Shown here: positions 46,374 to 55,582 of the stretch, piece after piece
How positions within the stretch are numbered: the first letter of the stretch is position 1
Layout of the letters: each line of letters opens with the position of its first letter
NCBI GenBank assembly: GCA_965262725.1
Contig: OZ253555.1
Span: 2,304,001 to 2,368,000, forward strand
Length of the DNA: 64,000 nt
Reading direction: 5' to 3'
From: Dehalococcoidia bacterium
GTDB taxonomy: Bacteria > Chloroflexota > Dehalococcoidia > UBA2979
The notes under the pieces: generated by a model
Told to the model about the DNA's origin: nothing
Database searches by the model: none
What the model saw: only the letters and a program-made list of their open reading frames with translations
Made by a program: the position numbers and the translations under genes

Positions 46374-46573
46374 GATTCTGCCATTCCCCTACGGTGATGA
46401 GATAGGTGAAAACGATTAGTCTGGACTAGGCGTAGTGCTCGCTTAGGAATCGGCACTTGGCCTATTGTGGTTGGTACTTTGTGCTCTCGTATCTCATGAG
46501 CAGTCGATGTAAGTTGTCACTGGTAAGAGTCGCGAGATTGCACGGCTCTCGGTGCGGTATTCGATCTGTCATG
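46374..46573. repeat. Conserved ~200-bp low-GC noncoding element, copy A
   Basis: Colinear with 55384-55582: 125/177 identities ungapped by hand count, then 12/13 after a 1-nt gap. Confidence 0.85.
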
Positions 46574-46632
46574 TCAAGGCGCATCCAAGCAGGTAACTCG
46601 GGACCGGGAGACGTGGCTTGCTGAAGACTGGC

Positions 46633-47838
46633 ATGGAAGCCATAGAGAAGTGGGTGACGCCAGGCACTTTGACCGACCCGGACGTCGTTCTGCATGCGGC
46701 AAGGATCTCTGTCTGGGGTCGCTGGTTCGTCTGGCTGGTCGGTGTCTTCCTGCTGGCCTACCGGCCGGGCTTCTGGTACCCCGACGACATCGGATTCCTG
46801 TCCATACCTGTGCTGCTGGGGATCTTCAACGGCCTTGTGCACCATCGGCTCCTGACGAACAGGCCGGTGACGTGGCGCTGGATGCTCTTCCTCAGCGCCA
46901 CGGAGATCGCCCTGATCACCGCCGGCATCGTCATCGGCGGCGGATTCAGGAGCTTCATCTTCCTGGCCTACTATCCGTCCCTCGCCGTCTTTGCCGTGGT
47001 CTTCTCGTCCCATTCGCTCAGTCTCGCTTGGACGACGGCGGTCGCCGTTGCTTACGCTGCCGTGTGCGTGCGGGTGGGCTCCGGTCTCGACCTCGATGCC
47101 GGCAACGAGAAGGTGCTGATCGCCAGGCTGGCGATGATGTACACCATCGTGCTGGGCATCAGTCTCATCATCCGGTTCGAACGCATCAGGTGGCAGACGT
47201 CGGTGGCAAGGGAGCGGGGGCTGCGGCGGGAACGCATCGAGCTCTCGCAGACGATTCACGACACGACCGCGCAGACCGCCTACATGGTTGACCTGGGGAT
47301 TCACAGGGCCCGGGAACTGGCCGGCGAGTCGAACGAGGCCCTGGTGGCCGCCCTGGATGCAACGTCCGCGCTGACACGGTCGGCCATGTGGGAGGTGAGG
47401 GGCCCCATCGACGCGGGCCACATCCTGGAGGGCAGGGAACTGGGACGGGTCTTGTGGTCGCACTGTGCGACCTTTGAAAAGATCACGGGCGTCCCTGCCG
47501 AGATGTCGCAGTCGGGAACCGAGCCCCCTCTGACCACGGAGACCCGAACCCGTCTCTTCTCCATCGCGCACAACGCGCTGACCAACGCCTTCCTGCACGC
47601 CCGGCCCGGGAGAGTCGAGGTCAGGTTGGGCTTCGAGGCCGACCAGATCAGGCTCTCCGTCTCCGACGATGGAGTGGGTCTTCCCGACGGCTACGCCGAA
47701 CGCGGGCGGGGCTTCAGCGGGATGAGGTCGGACGCCGAGCAGGTGGGTGGAGTGCTCAGCGTGGAGAGCGGCGAGGGGGCAGGAGGAACGACCATCTCCT
47801 GCGTGGTCCCACATGTCGCGGATCAAAGAGGAGGCTGA
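46633..47838 (+). CDS. Membrane sensor histidine kinase (HisKA_3, NarX/DesK-like)
   Basis: 5-6 N-terminal TMs; H-box ERIELSQTIHDTTAQ; NALTNAFLHA, DDGVG, GRGFSGMR. Confidence 0.88.
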   Translation: MEAIEKWVTPGTLTDPDVVLHAARISVWGRWFVWLVGVFLLAYRPGFWYPDDIGFLSIPVLLGIFNGLVHHRLLTNRPVTWRWMLFLSATEIALITAGIVIGGGFRSFIFLAYYPSLAVFAVVFSSHSLSLAWTTAVAVAYAAVCVRVGSGLDLDAGNEKVLIARLAMMYTIVLGISLIIRFERIRWQTSVARERGLRRERIELSQTIHDTTAQTAYMVDLGIHRARELAGESNEALVAALDATSALTRSAMWEVRGPIDAGHILEGRELGRVLWSHCATFEKITGVPAEMSQSGTEPPLTTETRTRLFSIAHNALTNAFLHARPGRVEVRLGFEADQIRLSVSDDGVGLPDGYAERGRGFSGMRSDAEQVGGVLSVESGEGAGGTTISCVVPHVADQRGG

Positions 47839-47839
47839 G

Positions 47840-53800: not shown

Positions 53801-54829
53801 GCTGGACAGGACGTCGCCCGCGTCGGTGTCCGAGAAGTTGAAATTGGCCGCCGTGAACGTGTAGTCCGCGTCCTCGGTGGTGGTCACCTCGCCGTTCGAG
53901 GCCGTGGGACGGTTGTTGATCGCGATGTCGAAGGTATTGCTGACCGACCCGCCGTTGCCGTCGCTCGCCGTCACCTTCACCGAGACCGTCGCCACGTCGG
54001 CGGCCTGCGGCGTACCCGAGAAGGTGCGCGTGGTGGCGGTGAAGGTCAGCCACGTCGGCAGCCCGTCGCCGTCGGCTTTCGTCGCCGTGTAGGTCAGCGT
54101 GTCGCCGTCCAGGTCGCTGAACGTGTTGTCCGGAAACGCATAGCTGAACTCCGTGCCCACCGTCGCCGTCTGGTCCGGAATCGCGGTCTCCACCCTCGGG
54201 GCGGTGACGGTCGACGTGGTCGTGCCCCTGATGGTGATGCGAAACGCCAGGCGCGTGATGGTGGGCCCCCACAGGTTCGTCGCGGAACTCTTGCGGTGAG
54301 ACTCATTGGCGATACTCCAGCCCGTGGCGCCGCCTGTGTCCTCGCGGTCGCGGGGGGTGGAGCCAAAGTGCAGGTTTTCTCCTCCCGGAGACGTGATCAG
54401 CAGCGTGTAGGTCGTGTCGGCCTCGAGGGGCATAGGGGTGGACGCGGTGAAAACAAGGATTCCGGCCGCGAAGCTACGAGGGGGCGTGAGGGCCGTGCAG
54501 GTTGAATCCGGGTAGCCGTCGACGTCGACGGTGCACACGGAGACGGCCATGTCGTCATCATCCAGATCGTTAGAGACGATTTCGACGCTTGACAGCGTGC
54601 TGCCGGTGGCGCCGGTGGTGAACGCCTGCGCGCGGTCCACGGTGGAAGTAGCAACAATGTCATTTGGGACCTGACCCATGTTGCTCACCAGGGTAGCGGC
54701 GGATTGCGCGGCCGCCGGCGGGGCTGTCCCCAGAACGGCGAATACGAGGAGCGCCGCGACTGCCGCGCTGCGCCGCGCCGCGCCGCGCCGCCCTGTGCCC
54801 GTAGGGCGTGTATCAGATGAGCTATTCAC
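50894..54829 (-). CDS. Giant secreted adhesin-like protein: choice-of-anchor-R-like domain, He_PIG/Ig and cadherin-like repeats, poly-Gly, and the same C-terminal module as 40399..46143
   Basis: GTG 54829 after GGAGG; signal peptide ending AAA-QS; LVSNMGQ...AQAFTTG; three LPxWLxF...SGTP Ig repeats; TIDVTAVNDAP cadherin-like motifs. Confidence 0.88.
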   Translation of the reverse strand: MNSSSDTRPTGTGRRGAARRSAAVAALLVFAVLGTAPPAAAQSAATLVSNMGQVPNDIVATSTVDRAQAFTTGATGSTLSSVEIVSNDLDDDDMAVSVCTVDVDGYPDSTCTALTPPRSFAAGILVFTASTPMPLEADTTYTLLITSPGGENLHFGSTPRDREDTGGATGWSIANESHRKSSATNLWGPTITRLAFRITIRGTTTSTVTAPRVETAIPDQTATVGTEFSYAFPDNTFSDLDGDTLTYTATKADGDGLPTWLTFTATTRTFSGTPQAADVATVSVKVTASDGNGGSVSNTFDIAINNRPTASNGEVTTTEDADYTFTAANFNFSDTDAGDVLSSVKITSLPAAGTLQVDGRAMTSATPPRTVTRVAIDASRLTYSPPPDANGDDYATFGFTVNDGTADSAAAQMTIDVTAVNDAPTVAIAIPDQAATAGTAFDYAFPRDTFSDADGDTLAYTVTRADGAALPGWLAFAGATRSFSGTPQAADVGTVSAKVTARDGNGGSVSDSFDIAVRAAGDTNSPPTASNGEVTATEDTDYTFTAANFNFSDTDAGDVLSGVKITSLPATGTLQVDGRAITSTALPEAVARADIDAGKLTYSPPADANGDDYATFGFTVNDGTDDSAAAQMTIDVTAVNDAPTVATAIPDQAATAGTAFRYAFPRDTFSDADGDTLAYSATRADGAALPGWLAFAAATRTVSGTPQAADVGTVSAKVTARDGNGGSVSDSFGIAIGASVPDAPSGIDGATIAPGGGGGGGGGGGGGGGGGGGGGGPTPSDVAFEWTVERDIGELDSGNDWPTGLWSDGAVLWILENGDGADDAVYAYDLTTGERVEERDFELDETNRAPRGVWSDRSILWASDSGQERLFAHDLESGERVPGRDIALAQRNGDPRGIWSDGETMWVLDGSRNALFAYDLGGGELLAEYALASANGNPRGLWSDRTTMWVSDHDAKWLFAYRLPARPEAPATEDAEAAPLERNRDEEFPSAVLSRASNNSPRGIWSDGDLMYVADASDDKVYTYNMPGAIDARLASLSLGGVDFGEFSPLRYDYASDTIPDGDVATLTAMPAQPGASLQIEPADHDGDPANGRHVRLLPGLQITITVTSEDGSRTRVYRLLLGQEEAPAPAPAPAPAPECLRGAVAVGFSFVVHQGGGVDGLETCSQSRHLAALYTLDGGEWVSFITGAPDFVNRRFRELYAGGIPASTTLIARSDGPATAGPVAAGLREPGAACLQGEIVEGFNLVLYEGGSVDDLEACAEGAGVTVLYFLDGGLWVSYILGAPEFVNRSFRGLFADGLPVATPLVGKSN
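52502..52568. repeat. GCC/GGC microsatellite encoding a poly-Gly linker
   Basis: About 22 consecutive Gly codons, mostly GGC; a related Gly tract lies at 42033-42090. Confidence 0.9.
52625..54190. repeat. Intragenic tandem repeat, 657-bp unit, about 2.4 copies
   Basis: Near-identical blocks at 52633 and 53290 (offset 657); third partial copy at 53929. Confidence 0.9.
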
Positions 54830-55383
54830 CCCATAGCCTCCGCGGTCGCGATGATTGATGGATGGGGCGCGAGCCCGGCCGGACGGGGAATCCGCCCGTG
54901 ACGCTCGACCGGCCTCAATCGCCAAGCGGGATCGCCAGATGCCAGCGAGGGATAGAGCTCGAGAGAACCTGCCCCCTCGTTACTGGGGCGCGCAGCTCAG
55001 ATGGACCGCTTCTGGGAAGTGGCGGGAACCGCGGAGCGTGCCGTGCCTCTGTCCTCGGGGACACCGACGTACGCGGCAATCTCCCACGGCGGATGAGGTC
55101 ATGCTCGAGCCCTTCACGTCCATCTACCAGCAAGGCTCCGGCGAACTCATCAGCCCCCCGTTCGACGCGGCCCCCGAACATGGTGTGCTCCGGCATCAGG
55201 AGGTGTTCTCCGCGTGCAGGAACGTGCGTCCGATGGCGTGCGCGATCATCCACCGCCACCTCGGCAGGCCGAGGCGTTGCCCCGTTCGGCCACATAGCTG
55301 GTCCGCATCTGCTCCCGTTTCACCCACGGCGCGCGGCCCGACGCACCCCGGTAGGTTGTCCGCCATCGCAGCTGTCGACGTGT

Positions 55384-55582
55384 GATTCTGACACTCCCCT
55401 GCTGTGATGAAATAGGTGCTAGTGACTACTCTGGGCGTGAACCTTTGCTCGCCCATGAGTCCACACTCGGCCTATTTGTCTTGATACAATGTGCTCGCGT
55501 CTCACATGAACAAGTGATGCAAGTGTTCAGTGGTAAACGCCGCGGGATTGCGCGGCTATACAGGGGGTGTCGGTCTGTCATG
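55384..55582. repeat. Conserved ~200-bp low-GC noncoding element, copy B
   Basis: Homologous to 46374-46573 (offset 9010); contains TGaTACAAT extended -10 at 55482-55490. Confidence 0.85.

Follow-up and report, generated by a model that had tools for sequence, protein, structure and literature searches.

A conserved intergenic element before a kinase-regulator gene pair of a Dehalococcoidia bacterium: a probable divergent promoter/operator and its orphaned sister copy

The window analysed here is a stretch of 64,000 nucleotides (nt) from Dehalococcoidia bacterium (assembly GCA_965262725.1, contig OZ253555.1, positions 2,304,001 to 2,368,000), and our subject is a short intergenic element that it carries in two diverged copies, A (46374-46573) and B (55384-55582). 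To the left of copy A, on the minus strand, lies the gene of a giant secreted protein of 1914 amino acids (aa), giant protein A (40399-46143), in which Pfam recognizes Peptidase_S8, the subtilase domain, together with fn3 and cadherin/Ig domains. To its right, on the plus strand, Pfam places a 406-aa membrane sensor kinase with HisKA_3 and HATPase_c domains (46618-47838) and a NarL/LuxR-type response regulator made of receiver and GerE domains (47840-48541). Copy B also has a giant secreted protein on its left, giant protein B (50894-54832, minus strand; He_PIG, Big_9 and cadherin-like domains), and no kinase on its right. We regard copy A as most probably a divergent promoter/operator of the sigma-70 type that serves the kinase-regulator pair, and copy B as its orphaned, decaying sister.

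The element was first noticed in a first-pass annotation made from the letters alone, which described a nearly gap-free pair of ~200-bp copies, AT-richer than their flanks, with a number of conserved blocks and no reading frame in common. This description holds throughout. The copies share 70.5% identity over 200 columns with a single 1-nt gap (blastn E 1.9e-19; local alignment score 101, with no more than 24 reached in 1000 shuffles), every named block is present in the alignment, no frame is common to both, and the GC content is 0.50 in A and 0.53 in B against 0.71 in the whole window. They stand in direct orientation, 9010 bp apart. In the 3.67-Mb genome, a single contig, nhmmer found exactly two copies; a third did not emerge with the stronger profiles built later, and profile and weight-matrix scans for further sites in the genome gave nothing above background. 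Neither copy is an assembly artefact, since both are present in short-read contigs of public runs, one of which may be the source sample: copy A in run X10 (581 nt, 0 differences) and in a contig of run X9 with no other letters and 3 gap letters, and copy B without differences in contigs of runs X2, X1 and X5.

At the nucleotide level the element is difficult to follow into other genomes. Searches of the blastn type with A (61 genomes) and B (99 genomes) were too insensitive, missing even the sister copy in the same genome, and a 27-nt match in G023 was discarded as lying inside a coding frame. With a two-sequence model the 99 family genomes gave one weak further match, in G069 (E 0.004), which by eye falls in a sigma-factor-like coding sequence and is ascribed to chance. 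Under strict filters this model did not detect the element in the other 98, and a better model did not return it from 7 family genomes; as many family genomes are incomplete, this is no proof of absence. An exact-pattern scan of all species genomes yielded five matches, none homologous outside the pattern (best E 0.044). As direct DNA searches had failed, the kinase was used as bait. It is held by 48 of the 401 genomes of the class, at 84 places, and the two-copy profile matched upstream of the closest kinases. A 7-copy model was built from A, B and five homologues, so that its matches to these seven are by construction, and was then scanned over 50 whole genomes, namely the 48 kinase-positive ones and two of the same genus. 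It gave 18 copies in 14 genomes belonging to five families. The nhmmer search proposed in the annotation thus produced nothing beyond A and B in the genome itself, but in relatives it led to a kinase-linked set of homologues.

The position of the homologues is fixed. The kinase of orthologous kinase-regulator genes follows in 14 of the 18 copies, immediately in 13 and, in G198, parted from the copy by an insertion, while the remaining four copies (B, G224, G146 and G401o, the fourth copy in G401) have no kinase. In 12 of the 14 element-holding genomes the copy is single. In G401 four copies occur within 35 kb (contig C1, 1548860-1583413), three preceding kinases and G401o preceding an RCC1-repeat secreted gene, which we read as repeated local duplication of a cassette. 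A kinase tree was made from 36 loci for which upstream DNA was available: 33 of the 84 places, an additional locus in G401 and two from metagenome contigs. The frameshifted G423 kinase entered it without its N-terminal half, and a longer distance was allowed for G198. In this tree the element marks one kinase clade (support 97/97), being present in 15 of its 16 members and in none of the 20 loci outside it. The kinase at L005, 68% identical, falls within the clade; its locus gives no more than a weak and interrupted match (E 0.035) and was scored negative.

Column conservation was examined over 17 copies, G384 being left out as a partial match, and it is blocky and nearly gap-free. The -11 A, the -7 T and the TG extension are key bases of promoters of this kind. 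The predicted rightward promoter, that of the kinase operon, occupies 46487-46515 on the plus strand, with a weak -35 element TCGTAT, a 17-bp spacer and the -10 element TAAGTT. The whole -10 box (46510-46515, TAnnnT) is present in 14/17 copies; the -12 T is kept in 15/17, the -11 A in 16/17 and the -7 T in 15/17, and -10/-9 vary. Facing the giant gene, a predicted leftward extended -10 (TGGCAGAAT, 46375-46383, minus strand) has the form TG-n-nAnnnT in 14/17 copies, the T and G of the extension in 16 and 17 of 17, the -11 A in all and the -7 T in 16. In four of six loci of the sister kinase clade we find TCGACA-17-TACGTT, a pattern near the sigma-70 consensus that was written after these sequences had been viewed, at the same spacing from shared GGTAC/CTC landmarks. 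The rightward box is altered in B, in G198, where the insertion lies before the kinase, and in G401c, whose kinase matches residues 18-300 only, and the leftward -7 T is lost in G401o, near which there is no long divergent frame. As a separate observation, the sister-clade loci L017, L021, L024 and L025 have a related but different upstream motif, in which TAGG/CCTA repeats accompany the TCGACA-17-TACGTT pattern.

These results alter the map of the element in some respects. The annotation had placed an extended -10 on the plus strand (TGgTACTTT in A, TGaTACAAT in B), where the -7 T is found in only 6/17 copies and the -11 A in 11/17; the conserved rightward box is that at 46510-46515, and the earlier motif, itself part of a conserved box, may be a second promoter in some copies, B included. 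The motif in copy B was likewise said to face a giant gene, which it does not directly precede, as ~550 nt of unrelated DNA lie between. Conservation so long and gap-free had been thought unusual for a plain promoter, which does not hold: two back-to-back promoters with boxes at fixed spacing take up ~150 bp, and the two copies are sisters.

Between the two -10 elements there are three conserved boxes. Box 1 (46394-46409, core GATAGRTSA) comprises the predicted flank of the leftward -35 and a candidate regulator half-site, box 2 (46424-46441, consensus GCCTTTSTCTTTTGCYCA) is partly degenerate in A and B alike, and box 3 (46452-46477, AGCR.T.TGCCYA..ATTGGTRC) is, by its column conservation, a candidate regulator site. 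The consensus 8-mer TTTGCCYA at 46434 recurs at 46457, 23 bp on. A 7-4-7 inverted pair resembling NarL heptamers was seen by eye at 46459-46476; it is not among the top self-similar pairs and is a candidate only, and no 7-2-7 pair is among the top pairs either. The regulators of the element-bearing clade share the recognition-helix variant TVRNTL or a close one, most others having NSI/NAI and G459 NAL, a difference that is confounded by kinship. The first-pass annotation had offered a divergent promoter/operator for the NarL-type regulator as one of its options, and this option is supported by the link of the element to one kinase clade and by -10-type conservation at either end; the regulator itself would presumably bind the region.

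The clearest hint of a target promoter in the left half is its recurrence before a secreted-protein family that also neighbours the full element. Upstream of a gene for a ~1200-aa secreted protein, behind the regulator, the left half alone is found in G058, G390 and G434 (E 2e-6 to 1e-4), that is in 3 of 5 genomes examined at E <0.001, and the same protein family is the divergent neighbour of the element in G401a and G423 (51-55% and 73% identity). The half copies comprise boxes 1 to 3a (L066 488-560, L067 564-623 and L068 713-780, each before the ~1200-aa gene), and by eye they are followed by a CACACT box one base nearer than in the full element. Copy A likely also drives the neighbouring secreted-protein gene, and from its position the gene of giant protein A is the predicted target of the leftward promoter.

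In the mechanism that we propose, the membrane kinase would phosphorylate the regulator, which would bind the TTGCCYA, ATAGGT and TTGGTA boxes between the two -10 boxes and so make up for the weak -35 elements. Activation to the right would act on the kinase operon as positive feedback, and activation to the left on the neighbouring secreted-protein gene. The unit of promoter, kinase and regulator would probably have moved between families and been duplicated within genomes. At B a mobile-element relic takes the kinase's place and the rightward -10 has mutated.

Copies A and B are sisters in the tree of the element (support 100/99), and the branch of B (0.36) is about twice that of A (0.16). 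B has changed in 17 of 62 conserved columns and A in 11, and the differences between them show no significant avoidance of conserved columns (16/62 against 32/97, Fisher p 0.38). The leftward box is kept in B (55385-55393, minus strand), and the rightward box now reads CAAGTG (55520-55525). Homology of B to A stops at 55582 and homology to an ~8.5-kb multicopy element starts at 55581-55584. The relic of that element (55581-56487, plus strand) occupies the place where the kinase operon would be; its two pieces, 55581-55724 and 55772-56487, are ~7 kb apart in a full element copy, and a small gene begins in it at ~55918. A profile search detected no 5' remnant of a kinase after copy B. Contigs in runs X5 and X12 match the right end of B and then run, as loose ends, into kinase-leader-like sequence, as would be expected if B-like sequence usually precedes a kinase. 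Most simply, copy B is a duplicated control region that has lost its operon and is likely decaying.

It is possible, though we do not hold it to be probable, that B instead works as a co-opted copy of the same promoter region, either bringing giant gene B under trans control by the regulator or using TGATACAAT (55482-55490) as a rightward promoter. The kept leftward box and the near-consensus TGATACAAT would fit this, as would the unchanged state of B in the contigs of runs X1, X2 and X5, the weak likeness of the N-terminus of giant protein B to the proteins encoded divergently at G198 (E 3e-6) and G224 (E 8e-4), and the kinase-less G401o standing before its secreted gene. The long branch of B and the changes in its conserved columns, which the A/B differences do not avoid, speak against co-option, as do the ~550 nt of unrelated DNA before the likely start of giant protein B near 54832 and the small gene to the right, whose 7 copies share a conserved upstream region of their own. 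Who binds the boxes is a separate matter. That the region is the promoter of the kinase operon and its boxes are bound by something else, be it a global regulator or an alternative sigma factor, seems unlikely to us: the absence of a -12 T in the leftward box and a layout unlike the 7-2-7 arrangement given for Escherichia coli NarL in PMC4549865 would agree with it, but the boxes track one kinase-regulator clade over five families whose regulators share a recognition-helix variant, and for a global factor further sites would be expected in the genome, where none were found.

The other readings leave the promoter aside altogether, and we give them very little weight. The annotation had proposed a long hairpin shared by both copies, and with it a structured RNA. 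Copy B alone does fold better than shuffles (z -3.9 and -5.2), and RNAalifold on 7 close copies keeps ATAGG/CCTAT and a small stem near the -35 region, with double changes in 4 of 21 pairs. Copy A, however, folds no better than shuffles (z 0.03 and -1.8), the consensus energies on the 7 copies are only -6.7 and -6.2 kcal/mol, the consensus fold on 17 copies has 0 pairs, and the stems named in the annotation pair in 48% of cells against 50% when shuffled over the 17 homologues, with equally high scores in 468-495 of 500 shuffles, whichever measure is taken. Neither copy has a match in Rfam, whose 5 sub-threshold matches in 45500-56500 all lie outside them. A structured non-coding or leader RNA is thus very improbable. 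Just as improbable is a recombination site bounding the 9-kb cassette between A and B or shuffling it, another of the annotation's options: the direct orientation at 9010 bp, the coincidence of B's homology break with the mobile-element relic and the four copies within 35 kb of G401 would suit it, but the longest exact run shared by two copies of some 70% identity is 9 nt, most homologues are single copies before a kinase (12/14 genomes have one only), and no recombinase family is among the 32 frames scanned around the copies with Pfam. An A-B joint was absent among 15 of 227 joints in four contig sets, which is uninformative either way, contigs dropping rare forms. Least of all do we expect a remnant of a coding gene or of the end of an insertion sequence (IS), which the annotation had named as what would overturn its view. 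Transposase-like frames adjoin the copies in G224, G198, G401o and G401b (by eye), yet these neighbours differ between loci, no frame is open in common across the 18 copies, conservation is without codon periodicity (0.65, 0.69, 0.70), the genome has two copies only, and the fixed position before the kinase disfavours such an origin.

Several observations weigh against the divergent promoter/operator itself. The minus-strand -10-like motif of the annotation stands as TG-n-nAnnnT, but the -12 T is found in 0/17 copies, and a strict sigma-70 consensus scan gave no site in A or B; this negative is expected, because the -35 elements are weak, and the scan lends no support either. The kinase-less G224 and G146 retain the rightward box. 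Copy A strays from the consensus in box 2, and the TTTGCCYA repeat is modest, column shuffles reaching as high in 0/60 cases at k=8 and in 4/60 at k=7. The profile behind the count of the kinase clade contains most of the positive loci by construction, although G384 and L006, both outside the profile, are matched as well (E 5e-7 and 1e-4). Kin share promoters, and the clade association therefore speaks for co-inheritance, not for binding. Nor is the divergent neighbour always secreted: five genomes of the G43 genus have a membrane-transporter-like frame there, and G146 and G384 an unrelated one (all by eye). In addition, the giant surface proteins have in common a ~540-aa C-terminal module of ~50-66% identity, their N-terminal parts differing, and since this module is found at more than 20 places genome-wide, only two of them with the element, the element is no general regulon box.

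Some features around the two copies may be recorded here. The 5' end of giant gene A (46143-46250, minus strand) looks frame-broken, an ATG-led frame near 46247 and a signal-peptide-like start at 46143 being in different frames. At the other end of copy A, a leader frame (46571-46624, plus strand) runs for 17 codons from an ATG at the element's end (MSRRIQAGNSGPGDVAC), its last codons overlapping the TTG start of the kinase. Frames of 17-18 codons ending in Cys occur in 5 of the 18 copies (A, G246, G401a, G401b and G423), and in G221 the corresponding ATG is in frame with the kinase; the frame in A may encode a leader peptide, or may have resulted from an old frameshift together with a constrained start region. 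Between the regulator and giant gene B lie, on the minus strand, a Septum_form-domain protein (48710-49162) and a protein resembling branched-chain amino-acid-binding proteins (49344-50606) that is below the family cut-off. To the left of B, 210 nt (55052-55260) are 67% identical to G246 DNA ~0.8 kb downstream of the regulator; the idea that this segment is a class II aldolase relic was dropped, as it has no Pfam match. The ~8.5-kb multicopy element, two copies of which are 94.6% identical over 8514 nt, is placed in genome G000 at about 388-397 kb, 1688-1697 kb, 2416-2423 kb, 680-685 kb and 2005-2010 kb. One of its frames is, judged by eye, presumably ArdC-like, and it ends in an ~84-aa small gene that has neither a Pfam nor an NCBIfam match and whose 7 copies are preceded by a conserved TGGGATAAT.

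Kinase and regulator both fall under the cut-off of every named NCBIfam family listed, and the atlas cluster nearest to the kinase consists mostly of Chloroflexota members. Closest to the regulator among solved structures are DevR, VraR and NarL. The system has in common with the NarX/NarL promoters of E. coli a HisKA_3 kinase, a NarL/LuxR-type regulator and short repeated boxes upstream of a weak -35. PMC4549865 describes E. coli NarL sites as inverted 7-2-7 heptamers, which are preferred, or single heptamers, with activating sites at -38 to -49, whereas the candidate pair in copy A has a 7-4-7 layout with its centre near -54. The proteins also score under the NarL (136.9 against 250) and NarX (35.1 against 578) cut-offs, so that, with no 7-2-7 pair among the top self-similar pairs, membership in a NarL regulon of the E. 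coli type was rejected. Mycobacterial DevR/DosR and staphylococcal VraR, the best solved-structure matches, have promoters with half-site arrays, divergent promoters and autoregulation. The boxes here differ from theirs, the protein similarity is at the family level only, and the present element is restricted to one kinase clade. Promoters orphaned when mobile elements insert or delete DNA are a general concept, and the control regions of B, G224 and G198, cut off from the kinase by inserted DNA, show no difference in kind from them. The literature search, in whose coverage most subscription journals were not included, returned no paper on this kinase-regulator system, and fibronectin, cadherin and histidine kinase are not mentioned in the accessible part of PMC6306507.

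Taken by itself, then, the element is of an ordinary kind, likely a divergent promoter belonging to a two-component operon, with one copy left over. A bolder view, which we consider doubtful, is that promoter, kinase and regulator form a portable switch across families of one Chloroflexota class that would put an adjacent giant secreted protein under one membrane signal; B, G401o and the left halves of G058, G390 and G434 would then be working satellite operators extending the regulon, and the Cys-ending leader frame might tune translation of the kinase. The divergent promoter/operator that we favour gives a defined promoter and a candidate operator to an uncharacterised kinase-regulator clade of uncultured Chloroflexota, for which the loci of the sister kinase clade offer a natural contrast set as to regulator specificity. 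It also ties the kinase clade to giant cadherin/fibronectin/Ig surface proteins, a link that is directly testable by reporter or binding assay in a laboratory host.

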